DNA of 64,000 nt from a phage, in sequence record PV730300.1, one strand, 5' to 3'. Position numbers and translations under genes: made by a program. A model generated the notes under the pieces. It saw only the letters and a program-made list of their open reading frames with translations, ran no database searches and was not told where the DNA came from. This document shows positions 30,847 through 41,821 of the stretch, in pieces (the stretch's first letter is position 1; the number at the start of each line of letters is the position of its first letter).

Positions 30847-31539
30847 TTAAATAGCGGTTCCTTCGAAATCCGCCACATTTACGAGATTAATATTTTCAGA
30901 TTTAGAAGTCAAGTTGTTTTCTGCAACAGATTTTTCTTCAGTATCCGCCTCGTTACCTGCCACGTTACGAGGTTCTTCTTCACCGTAGGGATTACCGAAT
31001 TTCAAAAGATTGATCAATTCTTCTTTGGAGAAGTTTTCTAAATCATCATCTGTTAATTCAATAATCTCGTCTTGTTCTTCAATAAATGTTTCACCACCAG
31101 AAAAAGCATCTCGCTTTTTAGCTACTTCCATAGCCTGTTCTGGTGTTGCTCCTGCATCAAGAGCAGCTAAAGCAAAATCTGACCCGCTTCCTACCGCATA
31201 ATATTCTTCATCAATCGGATATGCACGTGTTGGGTTGTTACCTTCATGCAGGAAAATACGTCCGTCTGGATGAACAACAAGTGCAATAAACTCTTCATCT
31301 TCTTTGTCTGGATCAGAGTGAATCATCAAACCAGGGACAGCATCACGTGCTGCTTCGCACTGTAGGTTTTGTTCAAACCATTGAAAGAAAGAAAGCACGG
31401 AGGTCAGACGACCAGCACCACCTACAAGGTAATCTCCAATTTTTCGGACCTTTTTGAAATTAATAGAATCTACACGTCCACCGAAAGTTACCTTACCGTC
31501 ACTCAAAATCTTATTTTTGGTTGCAATAATTGTCGTCAC
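30847..31539 (-). CDS. HslV-like Ntn-hydrolase peptidase with acidic C-terminal extension
   Basis: GTG start then TTIIA (Thr2 nucleophile position), KKVRK, GGAG, AVGSGSDFALAALDAG align to HslV; RBS GAGGAGG. Confidence 0.6.
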   Translation of the reverse strand: MTTIIATKNKILSDGKVTFGGRVDSINFKKVRKIGDYLVGGAGRLTSVLSFFQWFEQNLQCEAARDAVPGLMIHSDPDKEDEEFIALVVHPDGRIFLHEGNNPTRAYPIDEEYYAVGSGSDFALAALDAGATPEQAMEVAKKRDAFSGGETFIEEQDEIIELTDDDLENFSKEELINLLKFGNPYGEEEPRNVAGNEADTEEKSVAENNLTSKSENINLVNVADFEGTAI

Positions 31540-32870: not shown

Positions 32871-33371
32871 TTAGTTGTAAGCATCTAAAGTTCCAGAAGT
32901 CAGAACTTTAATTACTCGTTCAGCACGGTTTGGCGTCTGGCTATACCATCGGCTTTTACGCATGTTTTTACCTGCTTGAGTATAATATGCATTGCTGATT
33001 AAAGTCAAGCTATTTTGAAACCCTTCAGCACCTTTTAACCCCAACTGGAAAACCATGTTGATTATTCCCAATTTACGAGTATCACTAACCTTATCATAGA
33101 TTGGTGATAAGATAGTACTGTTTTTTATGTCTCTCTTCACTTTTGCAACATCGTCAGCAAAGATTTGACGGGCTTCTTTTTCTGTGATAACTCCATTAGT
33201 CTTACGACCAAGAAGATTATCTAAGATTTGAATAGCCTTTGCTTTATCTTTTATTTTAGTCAGAAGGTGTCCTATGCCGACTGTCCAATAACCAAGATGG
33301 TCTTGATAAACAGTAAGCTTCAGTCCTTCATCGACTCGTAGCATATCAAACTCATCTACTACTTTAGCCAT
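32871..33371 (-). CDS. T4-type lysozyme (endolysin, glycoside hydrolase family 24)
   Basis: DEGLKLTVYQDHLGYWTVGIGHLLTK and RWYSQTPNRAERVI align closely to T4 lysozyme. Confidence 0.85.
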   Translation of the reverse strand: MAKVVDEFDMLRVDEGLKLTVYQDHLGYWTVGIGHLLTKIKDKAKAIQILDNLLGRKTNGVITEKEARQIFADDVAKVKRDIKNSTILSPIYDKVSDTRKLGIINMVFQLGLKGAEGFQNSLTLISNAYYTQAGKNMRKSRWYSQTPNRAERVIKVLTSGTLDAYN

Positions 33372-33533
33372 TTACTTCCTATTCGTCGTCTCCTACTCCG
33401 TGATCCAACTCGTTAAACAACAGATGTTCTGGAGAAGTTTCACGTTTTGGTTTCGTTTTCTTTATGTTGGACTTCAGCTCATTTGCCAAAGCACGAGAAA
33501 AGATCTTACGTTTCTGTTTACTTTTCATAATTG

Positions 33534-33794
33534 TTACTCCGCAATTTGAGCCATGAGATCACGCAGTTCGGTAAAACCGCCTACGTATGTTACCTCCCCG
33601 TTCACTTCAGACAGAATTTGTGGAAATGTGCGTGGAGGAACTCCGGTAAGATCAACAACTGTTTTAGTCATTGATTCTAAATCGTAGTCTTGGTCAAGAC
33701 TTAAATATTCAAACTGTTTATTGCGCATAGTCAATAGTTGTTTTGACATTTCACAAAATTGACAGTTAGGTTTACCAAAAATTACAAATTCCAT
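33534..33794 (-). CDS. glutaredoxin-like protein (NrdH/NrdC-type redoxin)
   Basis: CQFC active-site motif, about 86 aa, adjacent to RNR genes. Confidence 0.6.
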   Translation of the reverse strand: MEFVIFGKPNCQFCEMSKQLLTMRNKQFEYLSLDQDYDLESMTKTVVDLTGVPPRTFPQILSEVNGEVTYVGGFTELRDLMAQIAE

Positions 33795-34636
33795 TACCTC
33801 TCCTTATTAAGTAATACTGCTAAAGACTGTTCAATACCTTTATTTAAATCTGATTTTGTAAGATAGTGACTGGTTACTAGTTGTGACTTCACCGGACGTG
33901 CTGCTGGAGCATTATAGGTTGAAGCTGATACCGCCGATATCTTAACAGGTTCTGGCATCTGTGTCAAGATCTTTTCCGCAAACTCCGCCCAAGAAATAAG
34001 ATGGCTTCCTGCAAAATGGTAAGTCTTAACAGACCTTGACCAACCTGTTTTTAATACTTCAAAAATAGCTTCTGCTAAATCTGGAGCATATGTTGGACAA
34101 GAGAACTGATCAGCAACAATAATAAAATCACGTTGTCCATCATTATAGCGAGACAACATGGTTTTTAGAAAGTTATTTCCAAATTCGCTATATACCGAGG
34201 CTGTTCGAATAATATATGCATTTGGGTTAACTCCTCGCACCATTTTTTCACCAAGTTCTTTCGTATACCCATAATTGTTTATTGGGTTAGGTGTAGTATC
34301 TTCAAAAATAGGATGAGAATAATTAAAAATATAGTCTGTAGAAATATGCACAAAATCAATTTTAAGTTTGCTGCACACTGCCGCAATATTTGCAGGTCCA
34401 TACGCATTAACAGCCAAAGCAGTAGCAAAATCATGTTCTGCTTTATCTACAGCCGTATAAGCAGCGCAGTTAATAACACCGTCTACATAATCTTCAACAA
34501 TAGCGTTTCGCACAGCTTCAAAATTTGTAATATCTACACGTTCTTTAGGATAAATTAAAGATACGTTTGAAGGAACCACTTTACGTAAAGCTTGTCCCAG
34601 TTGTCCATTACCACCCAATACCAGATATGTTAGCAT
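33794..34636 (-). CDS. rmlD: dTDP-4-dehydrorhamnose reductase
   Basis: VLGGNGQLG, AAYTAVDKAE, STDYIF, YGYTK, NNFLKTML, DQFSCPT align to RmlD. Confidence 0.8.
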   Translation of the reverse strand: MLTYLVLGGNGQLGQALRKVVPSNVSLIYPKERVDITNFEAVRNAIVEDYVDGVINCAAYTAVDKAEHDFATALAVNAYGPANIAAVCSKLKIDFVHISTDYIFNYSHPIFEDTTPNPINNYGYTKELGEKMVRGVNPNAYIIRTASVYSEFGNNFLKTMLSRYNDGQRDFIIVADQFSCPTYAPDLAEAIFEVLKTGWSRSVKTYHFAGSHLISWAEFAEKILTQMPEPVKISAVSASTYNAPAARPVKSQLVTSHYLTKSDLNKGIEQSLAVLLNKER

Positions 34637-35196
34637 ACACCCTCACTACGCAACTGTTGAAAAGATTTAGCCATTGCATCTTTTGTTGATAAGATAGGTT
34701 TAAAACCTTCGTCAAAAATCATATCGAAGCCCCAATCGATCCCTATGTCAGGATCATCCCAACGTAAACTTTGTTCGCTAGAAGGGTCGTATGGAGTTGT
34801 GCATTTGTATTCAAAGATAGCGTCCATACTCAAAACTATAAAACCATGTGCCAAACCAGGGGGAAGCCAAAACTGCGTATGGTGTCGTGCACTAAGAACA
34901 ACACCGTCCCAAGCACCGTAAGTTGGACTATCTTTACGTAAATCTACAGCGAAATCCAATACTTCTCCACTTACACAACGAACAAGCTTACCTTGCGGGT
35001 TATTTGTTTGAAAGTGCATTCCTCGCAAAACACCGAAGTTTGATTTAGACATATTATCTTGAACGAAAGTTTGTTTACCAATGATATCTTCGTATTTTTG
35101 TTCATTGTATGTTTCTAAAAAGAAACCACGATCATCTTTATAAACGTCTGGTTTGATAATTACCGCACCTTCAATTTTTGTTTTTTCTACTTTCAT
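34630..35196 (-). CDS. rmlC: dTDP-4-dehydrorhamnose 3,5-epimerase
   Basis: DDRGFFLETYN, FVQDNMSKSNFGVLRGMHFQ, GKLVRCVSGEVLDFAVDLRK align to RmlC. Confidence 0.8.
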   Translation of the reverse strand: MKVEKTKIEGAVIIKPDVYKDDRGFFLETYNEQKYEDIIGKQTFVQDNMSKSNFGVLRGMHFQTNNPQGKLVRCVSGEVLDFAVDLRKDSPTYGAWDGVVLSARHHTQFWLPPGLAHGFIVLSMDAIFEYKCTTPYDPSSEQSLRWDDPDIGIDWGFDMIFDEGFKPILSTKDAMAKSFQQLRSEGVC

Positions 35197-35205
35197 TTTC
35201 TCTCC

Positions 35206-35532
35206 TTACCAGACATGTTGAGAAATAATAGTTTCCGTTTTAATGTTATATTTTTCAAGTAGCTCTGCATAGGCTTCTTTTGCATTCTCATTTACTTTCT
35301 CAAGATCTACAGCTACGCTTCCTTCTCCGCCTTCTAAATAAATACCATATATGCAATAAGACTCATCAGCATCGTAGAAAGGAGAGATGCGACTTAAGTC
35401 AAGACCTTCTTGTAAGAACCAGTTAAAATCTCCGTCAAATTCTTCTTCAATTCTAGGGTCTTCTCCTACAGCCTCTTCCCATTTATTAAAAGGTGCACCC
35501 TGTAACATACGCCATTCGATATCAATACCCAT
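35206..35532 (-). CDS. hypothetical acidic protein
   Basis: ORF track. Confidence 0.45.
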   Translation of the reverse strand: MGIDIEWRMLQGAPFNKWEEAVGEDPRIEEEFDGDFNWFLQEGLDLSRISPFYDADESYCIYGIYLEGGEGSVAVDLEKVNENAKEAYAELLEKYNIKTETIISQHVW

Positions 35533-35707
35533 TTTTCATCTCCTCCTCTTCTTGAGCAGCTTTAATAATTGCTTCATAAATATCGTAAGCAATGCCTCCA
35601 CAACATCTAGCTTCGAAAGCTATTGCTTCTGCAATGTGATCTGTTAATTCTCGTGGAATACGGACATACTCTTTTTCATTCTCCATCTTCCACCTCTTCT
35701 TTTTCAA
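35522..35707 (-). CDS. hypothetical small protein (possible ribbon-helix-helix)
   Basis: ORF track; EYVRIPRELTDHIAEAIA resembles RHH N-terminus. Confidence 0.35.
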   Translation of the reverse strand: MKKKRWKMENEKEYVRIPRELTDHIAEAIAFEARCCGGIAYDIYEAIIKAAQEEEEMKNGY

Positions 35708-35821
35708 AGACTACTACTCGTCCCTCACCATGACAATTCAGGCAAGGAAATGTTACCATAATTTCCACTTCCATCTGTCCAGTCCCACCGCACACAGGAC
35801 AAAAAATAAGTTTTTCAGCCA

Positions 35822-36031
35822 TTATTCCTCCTTAATTATTTCAAACTTGGCAACACCGTTTACAATAATATGACCACAAGACATAACTCCTAGCCAAGGA
35901 TCGCCGTTTTTCTTCGGGCGTTTACCGAATACATCACAAAAACCATTCTTCATTTCGGAGGCTTCATAAGAAGCCCCTTTGTCAAAAACGTCTTTGAATG
36001 TGTCGATTATACCAACACATCTCAAAATCAT
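35822..36031 (-). CDS. hypothetical protein
   Basis: ORF track; ATGA overlap with nrdB stop. Confidence 0.4.
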   Translation of the reverse strand: MILRCVGIIDTFKDVFDKGASYEASEMKNGFCDVFGKRPKKNGDPWLGVMSCGHIIVNGVAKFEIIKEE

Positions 36032-37116
36032 TAGAAGTCAAGCTCCTCATCATCAGAGAGATCTTTGTTAGCTGAATTCAATTTGTAATTAGTTAACTGA
36101 ATCTCTTGGGCTGCTGACTGAATCAAATCAGGATTCAACCATTTTTCCATCCAAGCTAAAGGACTATGTTTAGGTGCTTTAAACTTAGCTTTCATTTTCA
36201 ATCGACGATAAATAGGAGCAGCATTGAAATAAACCCACTGTTTAGACAATTCGGCGTTAAGACCTACAATAAAACGACCTTCACTAAACAGGTAGTCACA
36301 CCACTGTTCCTCTTGTTCAACAACAGTGTCGAGGATCAAAGTCAACTCTTCAATATTGTCTTCGTAAATTTTACGCCAAATTGGGTCATGCATCAATGCA
36401 TCAATTACAGCATAATCCATCTTAACATGCAAGATTTCATCTAACATAATTTTCTGGATCAGTTTACAAGCCCCAACAAACAGTTGTTGTTCTGCCATAG
36501 CAAAAGTAGCAGAGAAGGAAGATATAAACTGAATACCTTCTAATCCAATCAGGGCTACCATCCCTTTAAGAATCAGCAGTCGAAGTTCATCGTTAGCTTC
36601 AATCAATCCTAGAGCATACTTATGACCAGCTTCTTCCAACTGACCCATGATATCAGCAATGATACCCATACGATTGAAAATTTTATCATTAATCATAATC
36701 TGATTGATGACTTCGATTGGATCTGGAGTACATTGACGGATTATTTCAGAATACGTTAACGCATGGAGAACTTCCATTTCACTCTGCTTCATCATCATAG
36801 CACAGGCTTCATTGTTACTCAAGAATGGAGAGAACAAAGTGATGATTGATTTTGCAAGAGAATCATTTTCCCATTGGAACGATAAGTTTTTAATCATAAC
36901 ATCATAGTTGTTTTTAGAACAAGCTACGAAATCTTTACGTGTCTGATCCAGATTGACTTCATTCTCATCCCAATCTTGTGCTTTTTGAAGTTTGTAGAGT
37001 TTGTGCATTTCTGGATAAGTTACGTTAACAGAATCAAAGATCCCTAATTGTTCCCCTAAAAATACTGGATATTTTCCTGTTTTGTAAACTTCATTGTGTA
37101 AATTAATTGCTGCCAT
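36031..37116 (-). CDS. nrdB: ribonucleotide reductase class Ia small subunit
   Basis: Length 361 aa; N-terminus and helical core resemble E. coli NrdB; adjacent to nrdA. Confidence 0.8.
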   Translation of the reverse strand: MAAINLHNEVYKTGKYPVFLGEQLGIFDSVNVTYPEMHKLYKLQKAQDWDENEVNLDQTRKDFVACSKNNYDVMIKNLSFQWENDSLAKSIITLFSPFLSNNEACAMMMKQSEMEVLHALTYSEIIRQCTPDPIEVINQIMINDKIFNRMGIIADIMGQLEEAGHKYALGLIEANDELRLLILKGMVALIGLEGIQFISSFSATFAMAEQQLFVGACKLIQKIMLDEILHVKMDYAVIDALMHDPIWRKIYEDNIEELTLILDTVVEQEEQWCDYLFSEGRFIVGLNAELSKQWVYFNAAPIYRRLKMKAKFKAPKHSPLAWMEKWLNPDLIQSAAQEIQLTNYKLNSANKDLSDDEELDF

Positions 37117-37133
37117 TTAAAATTCTCCTCAAT

Positions 37134-37155
37134 AAAAGGGGGCCGAAGCCCCTTT
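37134..37155 (-). other. conserved intercistronic hairpin AAAGGGGGCCGAAGCCCCTTT (copy 3 of 3)
   Basis: Between nrdA stop and nrdB RBS. Confidence 0.5.
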
Positions 37156-37184
37156 ACGTTTACCCTTCTTCACCTGTTCTCCTA

Positions 37185-39428
37185 CTACATTTTACAGGCA
37201 CTACACCCTTCGTCTTCAGAATCTTCTTGTGCTAAAGAGTCTGCTGATTTTGTTCTACTATTAAGGTAATACAATGACTTGCCACCCAGTCTGGCAAAAT
37301 TCAGAATAAACTGCATCTCAGCTTTCACTGATAAACGTCCACCTACCAATTTAGAATAATCTAGCCAAGAATCACAAGAAATTCCTTGGTCCGTGAACTT
37401 GGTAAAGATACCATACATTTCTGCAAGATCTTTAGCCGGAGTATCCCAGGCGGATTGGTAGAACATTTTCAGTTTTTCGTAGTCTGGAACAATAAATAAT
37501 ACACTACCTTTCTGACTTTGTTTATACATAATAGTATCACGAACAGGATACAGAGAGTTAGTAGTATTGCTTACCAAACTGCTGGACTCATTAGGTGCAA
37601 TAGCAGCCAAGACACTGTTACGGATACCACCTTGTTCAATGATTTCAGCACGTAAGCCTTCCCAGTCCATTTTAAGATCAAAATTACCGATACTATCTAC
37701 TGTTTTAGCATAAGTGTCAATTGGTAGCCAACCTTGAGGCCATTTGGTTTTATCGATCCATTCCGCATTACCTTTTTCCTTAGCCAGACGCAGAGAGGCT
37801 TTTGCCAACCAAAAGTAATGACGTTCTGCAAGTTCATGCATTAATTTTTTAGCATAAGCATCTGAATAATTTACAAAATTGCTTGCCAAGTAATGCGCTA
37901 AGTTTGTAATACCTACACCAATAGATCTACGTGCTTTAGCAGTTATTTCGTTATGTTTAAATGGATAATCCATTGTTTCAATAACGTTGTCAATTGTCAA
38001 TACAGTGTAGTATGCAACATCCTCATATTCTTCAGGTAATACACGACCAGCAACAATAGAAGATAAGAAGCATAAAGCCAATTCTTGATCTTCTGTATTC
38101 TCACCAGTAAAGAGATCCGGCATACTGTGGAAAGCTTTAGTTGGTAAGAAGATCTCTTGACACAGGTTTGATTGATATACCGTATCCAGGAAAGGTGTAT
38201 GGTTGTTAACGTTGTCAGCAAAGAACATGTAAATACGTCCTGTTTCTGCACGTTGAACAATAATCTCTGTCAGAAGATCACGAGCCTTAACAAATTTTTT
38301 CTTAATGCGACGACGGCTTACTTTGTCATAAACTGCATCAAACTCTTCTTCACTTTTATACAAAGCTTCATAAAGTTCAGGAGCATCATCACAACTAACT
38401 AACATCCAGTCTTCGTTTTTTGCTGCTCGACGCAAGAACGAACGGTTAACAACAATAGAATAATCTAGTTTATCCACTCGTTTATCTATAGGTGTTGTTG
38501 GATTCTTCAGTCGAATCAGATCGTCGAAGTCTGGTTCAAGTATGGTAAAGGTAACTGTAGCACTACCTCCACGGCTTGCTTGCTTTGAAGCTCCAACACT
38601 ATCTTCCATCCATTTCAGATACGGAAGAAGACCACCGTGAATAATACGATTATTCTTAACACCTTGACCTGTGGCACGAGTTTGAAGATTAACACCAATA
38701 CCTGCGTTATTCAACGTATACTCATGAGCTAAGTAATTAGCAATGGCTAAAGACTCTGCTGTATCGTCTGCACGGAATAAACAACAAGACGCACTTCCTT
38801 TGATCGGAGTTCGTAGAGTTGTCAGATACGGCGATGGCAGATTAATCTTAAGATCGCTAACATAAGTATAAAGTTTTTTAATATCTTCTATACGGCGTTC
38901 TTTTGGTTGGATCTCCATAACCTTCATTGCGACACCAATGAAAAGAAACTGTGGAGACTCATGCACCACATCGTTTACTGCATCTCGAATAAGATATTTA
39001 TCCACCATTTGACGTAAAACAGAATAACCATAAGTTAGATTTTTATTATGCTTTACAATCTTACCGATTTCTTTGATCTCTTCATCAGTATAATCCATTT
39101 TAGCCCAATGACCACGTTCTACCATATCATGATAAAAGGTATTCAGTGAAGGGATACTGTGGTATCCCCCATGAGCCTGTTTGTAAATCATACCCAGAAG
39201 AAGTCTTCCTGCCATATCACTGTAAGCTTGTGTTTTCTTGTCAATACACGCTGCAATCATTGCTTTATGCAGATCACGTGTAGACACACCGTCATAACAC
39301 CGCTTCACAGCTTCTAATTCAATTTCAGACCAGTTTAGTTTACCTGCTGCAAATTCAGACCACTTGCGAAGTTTTTCTGGGTTAAACTCCTCTGTCTTAC
39401 CATTAGATTTAGTTACAAAACGAATCAA
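37185..39428 (-). CDS. nrdA: ribonucleotide reductase class I large subunit
   Basis: 747 aa; ATP-cone-like N-terminus; C-terminal CSACKM redox tail; TTG start after GGGAGGAG. Confidence 0.85.
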   Translation of the reverse strand: MIRFVTKSNGKTEEFNPEKLRKWSEFAAGKLNWSEIELEAVKRCYDGVSTRDLHKAMIAACIDKKTQAYSDMAGRLLLGMIYKQAHGGYHSIPSLNTFYHDMVERGHWAKMDYTDEEIKEIGKIVKHNKNLTYGYSVLRQMVDKYLIRDAVNDVVHESPQFLFIGVAMKVMEIQPKERRIEDIKKLYTYVSDLKINLPSPYLTTLRTPIKGSASCCLFRADDTAESLAIANYLAHEYTLNNAGIGVNLQTRATGQGVKNNRIIHGGLLPYLKWMEDSVGASKQASRGGSATVTFTILEPDFDDLIRLKNPTTPIDKRVDKLDYSIVVNRSFLRRAAKNEDWMLVSCDDAPELYEALYKSEEEFDAVYDKVSRRRIKKKFVKARDLLTEIIVQRAETGRIYMFFADNVNNHTPFLDTVYQSNLCQEIFLPTKAFHSMPDLFTGENTEDQELALCFLSSIVAGRVLPEEYEDVAYYTVLTIDNVIETMDYPFKHNEITAKARRSIGVGITNLAHYLASNFVNYSDAYAKKLMHELAERHYFWLAKASLRLAKEKGNAEWIDKTKWPQGWLPIDTYAKTVDSIGNFDLKMDWEGLRAEIIEQGGIRNSVLAAIAPNESSSLVSNTTNSLYPVRDTIMYKQSQKGSVLFIVPDYEKLKMFYQSAWDTPAKDLAEMYGIFTKFTDQGISCDSWLDYSKLVGGRLSVKAEMQFILNFARLGGKSLYYLNSRTKSADSLAQEDSEDEGCSACKM

Positions 39429-40204: not shown

Positions 40205-41203
40205 TCACCATTTAGTATGATTTGTTAAAAGTTGACGATGTTGAATCCAGCCTTTGAAATTGCCAGACCAAAACTTACCATTACGATCTACATGGGTAAT
40301 ACCTGGTTCCCAAGAGTTAAAATCCCAAGGAGCATTGATAAACAAATCTTCAAAACAGTTCTCTCCATATTGTTCGCATGTTTCTTGCATTGGAGTGGCT
40401 TGATGTTCAAACGGAGAAGCATGAACCTTGCGCCCAGTCAGCAAACGACCATAGATATCTAAAGCTTTATCTTTAGTTGCATTCAAACGACGATAGCTAA
40501 CCTGTGCACAACACGAAGCTGAAATAGCTTTGGCTTCTTCCAAAGTAAGCACAACAACTTCTCCAGATTCATCTTGAACGTAGTATCCACCAAAAACAAA
40601 ATGATCGTCACCTTCTGTGCCAATATTATCATAGAAATGGTCTACATAAGGTGTGTGCCATTGCCCTGGTTTCAGCACCTCTGGTGTAGATTCTTCATAC
40701 TCTTTGTGCATATCTTTAGCCAAAGCTTCGATAGTAGGATCGGCTTCTTTGTCATCACGTAGCCACCAGAAATTTTCATATTCTGTTGCTGTCAGAACTG
40801 TTTTAATTCGTTGGAAAGGTTCTAGAAGACGGTTTGCAACTTGTTTGTGGTACCCTGCCAAAGAGAATTCTTCTGCAAAACGTGCTGCACTAAGCGCGGC
40901 AAGATCCCACCACTCTTGAGCAGTATAACCTGCATCAATAAGAGCGTCATGATCAACACCTTTATCCTGCATACCAGGTTGGTTAGCCCCAAAACGATAA
41001 GGACGAGCAGGTTGATTTCGCACCATTTCAATCAGTGTTTTAACAGGTATAGCACGGCTAGAAGCAGCATTACGACTGAACAGGCGGTGAGTCATCAATT
41101 CTGAATGAATAATACGTGGATATTCTAGTTCAAAAGTTACAATCTCTTTTCCGTCTTCAGTGATGGAATGCGCAATAATACTAGCCGAAATCTGTTTTGT
41201 CAT
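40205..41203 (-). CDS. thyX: flavin-dependent thymidylate synthase (ThyX)-like protein, atypically long
   Basis: THRLFSRNAASSRA matches the ThyX RHRxxxxxxxS signature region; 332 aa; RBS TAAGGAGAA. Confidence 0.6.
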   Translation of the reverse strand: MTKQISASIIAHSITEDGKEIVTFELEYPRIIHSELMTHRLFSRNAASSRAIPVKTLIEMVRNQPARPYRFGANQPGMQDKGVDHDALIDAGYTAQEWWDLAALSAARFAEEFSLAGYHKQVANRLLEPFQRIKTVLTATEYENFWWLRDDKEADPTIEALAKDMHKEYEESTPEVLKPGQWHTPYVDHFYDNIGTEGDDHFVFGGYYVQDESGEVVVLTLEEAKAISASCCAQVSYRRLNATKDKALDIYGRLLTGRKVHASPFEHQATPMQETCEQYGENCFEDLFINAPWDFNSWEPGITHVDRNGKFWSGNFKGWIQHRQLLTNHTKW

Positions 41204-41212
41204 TTTTTCTCC

Positions 41213-41821
41213 TTAGTTTTTAAAATTGTTCAAAGTGTTAAAAACATCCAAACATGTTAGCCACTGATCTTCTAAACCTGTGATCACAACATTTGGTTTT
41301 TTCTTTAGTTCTTCTAGATGGTTATCTTTATAAGGCGTATTAAAATATATTTTAACCACTTCATCTGGAAAATATAGTAGGTTATCAGCCCTGTCATCTA
41401 TTGCTATATCACAAGGCAATAAGTATTTTTCTTTCGTAGCAAAAAAGCCGTTACCAGATCCTTTGCTAAAATCAATCGTATCTAACGTTCTTAAAACATG
41501 CTTATGTTTAGAACTTAAGTGACCACCTTTTGTCACACTTGCGATCAAAAGATTGCTACCTTTCCTTGAAACATACTTTAAGAAATCCGGCATACCTGGA
41601 ACAAAACCCATTGTATCATAGAGATGAGGATTATCCAGAAATCCGTAAGGATCTATATTGAACTCCTCCCTGAAACCAGGAAAGTAGTTGGTAAGATCAT
41701 AGTCTGCATTTTTTGTGAATGTGTCTATCTTAACACCAAGTCCACTAATCTTATTCAACCATTCTAACCAAGCAACATCTAATGGAGCCACAACTAAATC
41801 CCAATCACATACTATCTGCAT
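41213..41821 (-). CDS. HAD-superfamily hydrolase, possible 5'(3')-deoxyribonucleotidase
   Basis: N-terminal CDWD (DxD) and IAIDDRADN (motif IV DD). Confidence 0.4.
   Translation of the reverse strand: MQIVCDWDLVVAPLDVAWLEWLNKISGLGVKIDTFTKNADYDLTNYFPGFREEFNIDPYGFLDNPHLYDTMGFVPGMPDFLKYVSRKGSNLLIASVTKGGHLSSKHKHVLRTLDTIDFSKGSGNGFFATKEKYLLPCDIAIDDRADNLLYFPDEVVKIYFNTPYKDNHLEELKKKPNVVITGLEDQWLTCLDVFNTLNNFKN

Follow-up and report, generated by a model that had tools for sequence, protein, structure and literature searches.

INTRODUCTION

Phapecoctaviruses are among the coliphages with the broadest host range and are popular candidates for phage therapy. Genes for the synthesis of dTDP-L-rhamnose have been annotated in this group since 2012, when an rml cassette was entered in GenBank for phage phAPEC8 (JX561091), and they have been discussed in at least three papers (Olsen 2020, PMC7552041; Maffei 2021, PMC8594841; Nicolas 2023, PMC10269720), the last of which noted a two-gene form in phage ESCO37. 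Here we describe the rml locus of sequence record PV730300.1, of which a stretch of 64,000 nucleotides, referred to below as the window, was analysed. The window comes from a phAPEC8-like myovirus of Escherichia coli, genus Phapecoctavirus, subfamily Stephanstirmvirinae, and carries the two-gene form, with rmlC and rmlD located between the ribonucleotide reductase gene nrdB and the glutaredoxin gene grx.

Positions 33000-36000 are 99.4% identical to Klebsiella phage ZCKP1 and 98–99% identical to dozens of Escherichia phages. The whole window is colinear with Escherichia phage iGC_PHA_EC001 (129,336-148,445, then 1-43,924), a complete genome of the two-gene form that is 98–99% identical and stands in below for sequence outside the window. 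The rml genes of this phage group are already known and the window is an ordinary member of it; what the present analysis adds is a deletion running from one Shine-Dalgarno site to another, selection on rmlC and rmlD in the absence of rmlA and rmlB, genome-wide figures for complementation by the host, a link to a glycosyltransferase (GT) cassette and a case against bulk glycosylation of the phage DNA.

RESULTS

A deletion between two ribosome-binding sites removed rmlB and rmlA

Relative to phAPEC8, which has rmlB-rmlA-rmlC-rmlD at the same locus, 1,876 bp are absent from the window. In phAPEC8 rmlB is preceded by TAA-GGAGA-actg-ATG and rmlC by GGAGAG-AAA-ATG, and in the alignment the window carries the fusion of the two, TAA-GGAGAG-AAA-ATG. 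A clean deletion between the two GGAGA ribosome-binding sites has taken out rmlB and rmlA, and rmlC keeps an intact ribosome-binding site after it. An earlier note on this DNA had already stated that RmlA and RmlB are missing from the window, and tblastn agrees: the best match for RmlA in the window has E = 0.097, with no match at E ≤ 1e-3 across the whole iGC_PHA_EC001 genome, and RmlB matched only RmlD in the window, a cross-match within the short-chain dehydrogenase/reductase (SDR) family (E = 2e-4), with none in the whole genome of the relative. The search of the rest of the genome that the note had proposed, carried out via this relative, found neither rmlA nor rmlB but did find four GT genes.

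The four-gene cassette also occurs in phi92 (Justusliebigvirus), phiWec186 and PsgM04F, and is always flanked by nrdB with a few small open reading frames (ORFs) on one side and by grx, lysozyme and phoH genes on the other. Its conservation in place across phAPEC8 and these three phages makes it likely that the four-gene cassette is the ancestral state of the subfamily. When the two forms were counted with a 151-nt junction probe, the contiguous two-gene junction was present in 22 records, corresponding to 18 distinct phages (ZCKP1 and 17 others), and the split four-gene form in approximately 42 records. Descent of all two-gene phages from one clone does not fit the distances in rmlCD, which interleave two-gene and four-gene phages; anhysbys, a two-gene phage, differs at 2 of 1,410 positions from the four-gene phage BI-EHEC and at 24–34 from other two-gene phages. 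The deletion allele therefore either moves between phages by recombination or arises repeatedly; in the laboratory, the recombinant phage REC got rmlAB back (PMC10269720). A scan of IMG/VR with RmlC gave two loci only, too few for population analysis.

The remaining genes are predicted to encode functional RmlC and RmlD

Both ORFs have the features of full-length enzymes and are predicted to be functional RmlC and RmlD. RmlC scores 226.8 bits against the TIGR01221 equivalog profile (cutoff 155.75) over profile positions 1-174 of 176, covers the whole of PF00908 (E = 2.4e-67) and gives full-length matches to solved RmlC structures, including 1dzr, with E of about 1e-56. Its motifs align to those of solved RmlC and keep the catalytic residues H61 (LRGMHFQ), K70 (QGKLVRC), Y130 (FEYKC) and D173 (STKD), the counterparts in the Salmonella enterica enzyme being H63, K73, Y133 and D170; these positions show zero variation among the 14 phages compared below. 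RmlD scores 238.2 bits against the TIGR01214 equivalog profile, a narrow margin over the cutoff of 224.05, matches PF04321 with E = 2.6e-73 and aligns end to end with the solved RmlD structures 3sc6 and 1vl0 (E of about 1e-44). The SDR signature that it shares with these structures comprises GGNGQLG (GxxGxxG) at residues 8-14, T100 in ISTDY, and Y122 and K126 in YGYTK (YxxxK). The assignment of the two ORFs made in the earlier note is upheld by the equivalog cutoffs, the catalytic residues and the PDB matches.

rmlC and rmlD are under purifying selection and appear to be old phage genes

Selection was measured in eight two-gene and six four-gene phapecoctaviruses (n = 14). Both genes are intact and of the same length in 14 of 14, and third codon positions hold 73 of the 99 segregating sites. 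The ratio of non-synonymous to synonymous polymorphism (pN/pS) is 0.036 for rmlC in the two-gene phages and 0.026 in the four-gene phages, and for rmlD 0.143 and 0.121, although the polymorphisms behind these values may be older than the deletion. Both genes are under strong purifying selection, with no relaxation after the loss of rmlA and rmlB. One could suppose, since half of a four-step pathway is gone, that rmlC and rmlD are a non-functional remnant, decaying as passengers. However, in all eight two-gene phages both ORFs are intact with lengths unchanged, pN/pS is the same as in the four-gene phages, the segregating sites fall mainly at third positions, the catalytic residues are invariant and the substrate comes from the host. 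These data already contradict such decay, to which we would give hardly any credence.

Amino acid identity between phAPEC8 and phiWec186 is 94% for RmlB and 97% for RmlA, with the backbone protein NrdB below these at 89%, and 64% for RmlC and 66% for RmlD. In phAPEC8 the guanine-cytosine (GC) content is 0.43 for rmlB and rmlA, 0.38 for rmlC and 0.37 for rmlD; in the window the rml genes (0.37–0.38) equal the phage backbone. This mosaic (Table 1) suggests that the rmlBA and rmlCD halves may have been exchanged or replaced independently. Compared with the rfb enzymes of E. coli K-12, the phAPEC8 proteins are 63% (RmlA with RfbA), 47% (RmlC with RfbC) and 33% (RmlD with RfbD) identical; with the K-12 rff enzymes the values are 51% (RmlB with RffG) and 65% (RmlA with RffH), RmlC and RmlD being without an rff counterpart. 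The nearest cellular relatives of RmlD among 185,579 species genomes are 36–44% identical and mostly belong to Bacteroidota. A recent capture of rmlCD from the host is ruled out by these cellular relatives and by the 47% and 33% identities to the K-12 enzymes. Both genes appear to be old residents of the phage.

The host is expected to supply the first two steps

In E. coli, RffH and RffG make dTDP-4-keto-6-deoxy-D-glucose for the Fuc4NAc of enterobacterial common antigen (ECA), and 98% of the complete E. coli genomes searched (5,309 of 5,426) carry the rffG-rffH pair. K-12 rfbC-like DNA was found in 2,348 of these genomes (43%), a lower bound since blastn was used with a single allele. Pathway knowledge and gene prevalence together suggest that the host would make dTDP-4-keto-6-deoxy-D-glucose via RffH and RffG, the ECA pathway, or via RfbA and RfbB. 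The phage RmlC would then epimerise C3 and C5 and the phage RmlD reduce C4 to give dTDP-L-rhamnose, as predicted from their families. Such a conversion of a host intermediate into dTDP-L-rhamnose by the two phage enzymes is very probable, and the rhamnose supply would then no longer depend on the host strain's own rmlC and rmlD. It may be that rmlA and rmlB are expendable, and rmlC and rmlD are not, because the host nearly always has steps 1 and 2 and often is without steps 3 and 4. Complementation by the host, if so, would fit the polymorphism of two-gene and four-gene forms exactly.

A glycosyltransferase cassette is the probable consumer

In iGC_PHA_EC001 four adjacent GT genes lie beside the primase-helicase and DNA polymerase genes, beyond the window and at a distance of approximately 74 kb from rmlC and rmlD. 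Two of them, GT1 and GT2, are paralogues of the GT-B type (phrog_7162; Glyco_trans_1_2 and Glyco_trans_1_4), GT3 is a GT-A enzyme with an invariant FIFDDD motif and GT4, a small protein, has a DTD motif. Searches of GT1, GT3 and GT4 against PDB chains by sequence gave no meaningful matches, and NCBIfam gave nothing for the GTs. The model of GT1 (predicted local distance difference test score, pLDDT, 93) has its nearest neighbours among folds of the GT4 family, namely PglA, BshA and MshA together with the protein O-glycosyltransferases SdgB, GtfC and Gtf3, and the GT3 model returned generic GT-A matches in Foldseek, with template-modelling (TM) scores of 0.4–0.5.

The distributions of the GT cluster and of RmlC coincide, both being found in 65 Phapecoctavirus, 6 'Wecvirus' and approximately 55 Justusliebigvirus records as well as in the Klebsiella phages KP2025 and phi1_175008; in Vequintavirinae neither RmlC nor the GT cluster was found. 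On a 135-kb contig (L103), whose GT3 is 43% identical, a gene for an RmlB-like 4,6-dehydratase (TIGR01181, E = 3e-50) lies between GT4-like and GT3-like genes, and the GT cluster again adjoins primase-helicase and PolA genes. Only this neighbourhood counts as an independent link between rml and GT genes. Considering both lines of evidence, the rml genes probably feed the GT cassette.

Temperate phages of the HK97-like, P22-like and lambdoid kinds have the GT4-GT3-GT2 cassette too, or else its core of GT3 and GT2, and in each of them it lies in a late region, beside or within the head and packaging genes (Table 1). The GT pair is placed between lysis and terminase genes in L105, between terminase and portal genes in L108, and between Q and lysis genes in L109. 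The cassette appears to be a mobile phage glycosylation module. Just upstream of the GT cluster, and kept in distant relatives, is a Ter-type module whose members include TerD, a vWA-TerF-like protein, TelA ('tellurite resistance'), TerC (in the relatives), a ComF-like phosphoribosyltransferase, a SprT-like protein and phosphatases.

Gene context and neighbouring features

The features of the locus and of the related loci are collected in Table 1. rmlC and rmlD sit in one leftward run with nrdB and nrdA upstream of them, and the ORF map and profile matches bear out the earlier note in placing the glutaredoxin and ThyX-like genes in the same run. The start of rmlD overlaps the stop of rmlC by 7 nt, and its own stop overlaps the ATG of grx (TAATG, read directly at the junction), so that grx is probably translationally coupled to rmlD; a terminator scan from nrdB to grx found no terminator-like hairpin.

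The conserved 108-aa ORF directly upstream of rmlC, for which a Pfam profile search gave no match, is syntenic in phAPEC8, phi92 and phiWec186 and precedes rmlB in the four-gene relatives. In phage WPEC2 it is annotated as two fragments of 99 and 135 nt, and at the level of annotation this copy may be disrupted. Where the window has only 68 nt between nrdB and nrdA, ZCKP1 and phAPEC8 have an ORF of 339-408 nt and iGC_PHA_EC001 a gene for an HNH endonuclease, and this spacer looks like an insertion hotspot for genes of the homing-endonuclease type. The NADAR-domain and Sir2-like proteins encoded by iGC_PHA_EC001 are candidates for counter-defence or for NAD/ADP-ribose functions. Records labelled Acinetobacter phage ABPW7, Campylobacter phages B15/A150 and others, Pseudomonas phage PsgM04F and Klebsiella phage ZCKP1 are 93–99% identical at this locus to E. 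coli phapecoctaviruses or to Justusliebigviruses, and the hosts given in some of these labels can probably not be relied on.

Table 1. Coordinates of the rml locus, its neighbours and related loci
Feature	Sequence	Position	Strand	Evidence or remark
rmlC, dTDP-4-dehydrorhamnose 3,5-epimerase (predicted), 188 aa	window	34630-35196	-	TIGR01221, PF00908, PDB matches, catalytic residues
rmlD, dTDP-4-dehydrorhamnose reductase (predicted), 280 aa	window	33794-34636	-	TIGR01214, PF04321, PDB matches, catalytic residues
GGAGAG Shine-Dalgarno site before rmlC, also the deletion junction	window	35200-35205	-	three-way alignment with phAPEC8
Glutaredoxin gene (grx)	window	33534-33794	-	PF00462, E = 1.8e-9; syntenic in phi92, phiWec186, PsgM04F
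Conserved 108-aa ORF	window	35206-35532	-	phrog_15453, E = 7.9e-72 (no function annotated)
nrdB and nrdA, class Ia ribonucleotide reductase	window	36031-39428	-	PF00268, E = 6.3e-33 for nrdB; annotation of relatives
nrdB	window	36031-37116	-	
nrdA	window	37185-39428	-	
nrdB-nrdA spacer, 68 nt	window	37117-37184		
GC-rich terminator-like hairpin in the spacer	window	37139-37152	-	
ThyX-like gene	window	40205-41203	-	Pfam Thy1, E = 3.6e-8
HslV/20S-proteasome-like peptidase	window	30847-31539	-	same leftward early-gene run
NT5C-type 5'-deoxynucleotidase	window	41213-41821	-	same leftward early-gene run
rmlB/rmlA half of the cassette	L001; L006	5194-7073; 5125-7004		mosaic comparison
rmlC/rmlD half of the cassette	L001; L006	3795-5197; 7001-8400		mosaic comparison
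108-aa ORF of WPEC2, two fragments	L013	2294-2629		annotation
GT genes, HK97-like prophage, Serratia sp. M24T3 (AJHJ01000054.1)	L105	5589-7670		
GT genes, temperate phage	L108	9989-11992		
GT genes, temperate phage	L109	9463-10963		
Ter-type module, iGC_PHA_EC001	L009; L010	41846-47451; 255-1082		
Ter-type module, relatives	L104; L106	1201-8331; 1-4749		
NADAR-domain protein (E = 1e-35) and Sir2-like NAD-dependent deacetylase, iGC_PHA_EC001	L010; L008	19734-20276; 81-881		outside or at the edge of the window

DISCUSSION

Weighing the explanations

Our results are best explained by RmlC and RmlD that a deletion has left functional, that are fed by the host and that supply the GT cassette, and to this explanation as a whole we assign a probability of roughly 0.4. 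In the assembled pathway, the phage cassette (a GT-A enzyme, a pair of paralogous GT-B enzymes and a fourth, small GT) would consume dTDP-rhamnose to build a glycan that contains rhamnose, the acceptor of which is probably not DNA. The earlier note remains valid for the identity of the genes, their context and the absence of rmlA and rmlB, but had missed the origin of the locus by deletion, the supply from the host, the GT cluster and the option of a virion protein as acceptor. Several points weigh against our explanation. RmlD is only narrowly above its equivalog cutoff and approximately 40% identical to characterised enzymes, and its product might instead be a related sugar such as dTDP-6-deoxy-L-talose. 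The GT cluster lies outside the window, its presence in this isolate being deduced from all close relatives, including ZCKP1, and the joint presence of rml and GT genes mostly reflects the ancestry of one clade, gives few independent observations and is statistically weak. The modelled GT folds seem generic and leave the acceptor unfixed; the capsid, decoration and tail-tube proteins, whose last 40 residues were inspected for the Ser/Thr-rich tails that mark glycosylation of the mycobacteriophage kind, are not notably rich in Ser or Thr there; and the late or 'moron' positions of the GT pair in temperate phages would also suit genes for lysogenic conversion whose target is the host surface. 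To these must be added the possible age of the polymorphisms, the lower bound on rfbC prevalence and, for the acceptor, the fact that the restriction data discussed next come from relatives and are blind to sparse or sequence-specific DNA modification.

The earlier note had offered two functions for the rml genes, glycosylation of DNA bases and remodelling of the host surface, of which the former fares badly and the latter is kept as a rival. Rhamnose could be placed on a modified phage base as a protection against nucleases, in the way that T4 uses glucose and RB69 and DLP3 use arabinose, a proposal already made in print for this group (Olsen 2020, PMC7552041). The rml genes, flanked by nrdB and grx, and the GT cluster, which adjoins the primase-helicase and PolA genes, both lie in modules for replication and nucleotide metabolism, sugar-nucleotide genes with several GTs and a thymidylate-synthase-like gene echo RB69 and DLP3 (PMC13326640), and GT3 weakly matches TAGT (PF20691, E = 1e-3) and the β-glucosyl-HMC α-glucosyltransferase family phrog_842 (E = 7.6e-6). 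However, the similarity of GT3 to these families spans only about 38 residues round the DxD motif, a shared feature of GT-A enzymes, and the resistance to restriction that is expected of glycosylated DNA, which the note had suggested as a check, does not appear in the literature on relatives. In the HincII restriction fragment length polymorphism (RFLP) typing of Nicolas 2023, which took in Phapecoctaviruses (four-gene ESCO5 and two-gene ESCO37) and Justusliebigviruses, only three Tevenvirinae resisted (PMC10269720), and phi92-like phages were found 'exceptionally susceptible' to restriction-modification (RM) systems despite their putative dTDP glycosylation machinery (Maffei 2021, PMC8594841). 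The window itself has 47 HincII sites against 55±7 expected, that is, no depletion. Neither a base hydroxylase (TET/JBP, hydroxymethylase or ThyA-type) nor a hypermodification kinase was found in the annotation of the relative or in 20 extra Pfam scans, which did not take in all small or very divergent proteins. The ThyX-like protein, considered as specific evidence for a base hydroxylase, was rejected as too widely shared among phages without rml or GT genes. It matches only the C-terminal two-thirds of Thy1, with THRLFSRNAASSR in place of the canonical RHRxxS motif, and this divergent type occurs in 1,035 phage records (rV5, ICP1, N4-like phages, Pakpunavirus), many of which have no rml or GT genes. 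The modelled fold of GT1 resembles the GT4 family and appears unlike the T4 DNA glucosyltransferases AGT and BGT, neither of which is among its top 50 structural matches. Ordinary temperate phages (lambdoid, P22-like and HK97-like) also carry the GT pair, and no nucleotide-modifying genes are seen in the stretches of them that were recovered. Bulk DNA glycosylation is therefore disfavoured, and rhamnose on the phage DNA is improbable; provided that the GT cassette uses the sugar, it is quite likely that the acceptor is something other than DNA. It has also to be considered that no glycan is made at all and that the two enzymes serve a metabolic diversion, draining dTDP-4-keto-6-deoxyglucose from ECA synthesis. 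RmlA is feedback-inhibited by dTDP-L-rhamnose, and in such a diversion the product would act on RmlA and RffH and so spare dTTP and glucose-1-phosphate. The position of the rml genes among genes for deoxynucleotide supply, coupled to glutaredoxin, would suit this, as would the fact that the host intermediate is common to the ECA branch through WecE, but diversion leaves unexplained why the ancestral and majority form has RmlA and RmlB, which consume dTTP, and why the genes strictly co-occur with the GT cassette and an RmlB-like gene lies inside a GT cluster. We regard it as highly improbable.

For a glycan made by the GT cassette from phage-made rhamnose, as we prefer, two acceptors deserve attention, and we lean towards a virion protein, with the host envelope a close second. 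A virion protein, as in the glycosylation of mycobacteriophage virions, is tentatively put forward because the homologues of GT3 are in that phage group, because the GT pair lies among late and head genes of temperate phages, and because slow remodelling of the surface would bring a virulent phage little gain. The only remote phage homologues of GT3 found by tblastn are 356 Mycobacterium phage GT records, including those of cluster F and Myrna gp234 (E of 2e-8 to 1e-4, 24–28% identity over 52–59% of the query), a remote relationship at the level of the family only. Glycosylation of mycobacteriophage capsids and tail tubes was reported by Freeman 2023, as relayed in PMC11256854 and PMC12619734. 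It is possible, though doubtful, that the rml genes and the GT cassette with its GT-A/GT-B core pair are a virion-protein glycosylation system that puts a rhamnose glycan on the capsids or tails of enterobacterial phages. One paper saw no staining for glycoproteins in any of ten phages, among them JEP7 of E. coli, but it leaves the taxonomy of these phages unstated and is not usable here. Alternatively, phage GTs or host rhamnosyltransferases may use dTDP-rhamnose on the lipopolysaccharide (LPS) core, O-antigen or ECA, with the benefit that masked receptors would block superinfection or keep progeny off debris. The primary receptor of relatives is ECA and their terminal receptor the LPS core (PMC8594841), the GT3 model is similar in fold to TarP, a prophage GT for wall teichoic acid, and to RmlT, which depends on TDP-rhamnose, and the GT1 model to PglA, which acts on a lipid-linked glycan. 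Nevertheless, the phages are strictly virulent with a short cycle and replacement of surface glycans is slow, the annotation of the relative shows no flippase, ligase or membrane-anchored component, and the GT genes of L108 are inside the head-gene module. Envelope remodelling is rather unlikely.

Significance

Rhamnose on virions could change how therapeutic phages are recognised by the immune system, how they bind mucus and how stable they are, and, if true, this would be the first virion glycosylation in phages of Gram-negative bacteria and the first with a phage-made activated sugar. If the sugar is instead placed on the host envelope, a virulent phage would be masking receptors, and if on DNA, the base modification would be new. 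For genetic work on function the tools are already at hand, in the form of the naturally occurring two-gene and four-gene phages and of rff and rfb mutants of E. coli. The pattern, in which the steps that the host may lack are kept and those that it always has are dropped, is a clear example of the trimming of auxiliary metabolic genes.

Comparison with known systems

Like RB69 and DLP3, the phage has nucleotide-sugar genes and several GTs in DNA-metabolism modules (PMC13326640). The arabinosylation of those phages differs in that it needs a 5hodCMP synthase homologous to ThyA and renders the DNA highly resistant to restriction, whereas no such enzyme was found here by annotation and Pfam scans of the relative, and the DNA of relatives is readily cut. 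Neither the Pyle preprint nor the 2026 5hoC paper mentions rhamnose or this phage group. The mycobacteriophages Che8, Myrna and Corndog also have soluble phage-encoded GTs that are remote homologues of GT3, and it is there that glycosylated virions have been reported, whereas Stephanstirmvirinae are known in this respect from their genes alone. We know of no sugar-nucleotide synthesis genes in the glycosylated mycobacteriophages. Mimivirus does make its own activated rhamnose, UDP-L-rhamnose, through R141 and L780 for the glycans of its virion fibrils, and in this resembles a virus-made rhamnose nucleotide for the virion; its pathway is however of the eukaryotic UDP type with a bifunctional epimerase/reductase, and both virus and host are unrelated. 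With the bacterial dTDP-L-rhamnose pathway (rmlBDAC/rfb, rffGH) the locus shares the enzyme families, the catalytic residues and the expected product, but the phage encodes only steps 3 and 4, its enzymes are not derived from the host and no O-antigen or capsule cluster is linked to them. The closest likeness is to the cassette of phAPEC8, phi92 and 'Wecvirus', at the same nrdB-grx locus and with RmlC and RmlD 98–99% identical to those of phAPEC8, from which the window differs by the loss of rmlB and rmlA through a deletion from one Shine-Dalgarno site to the next.

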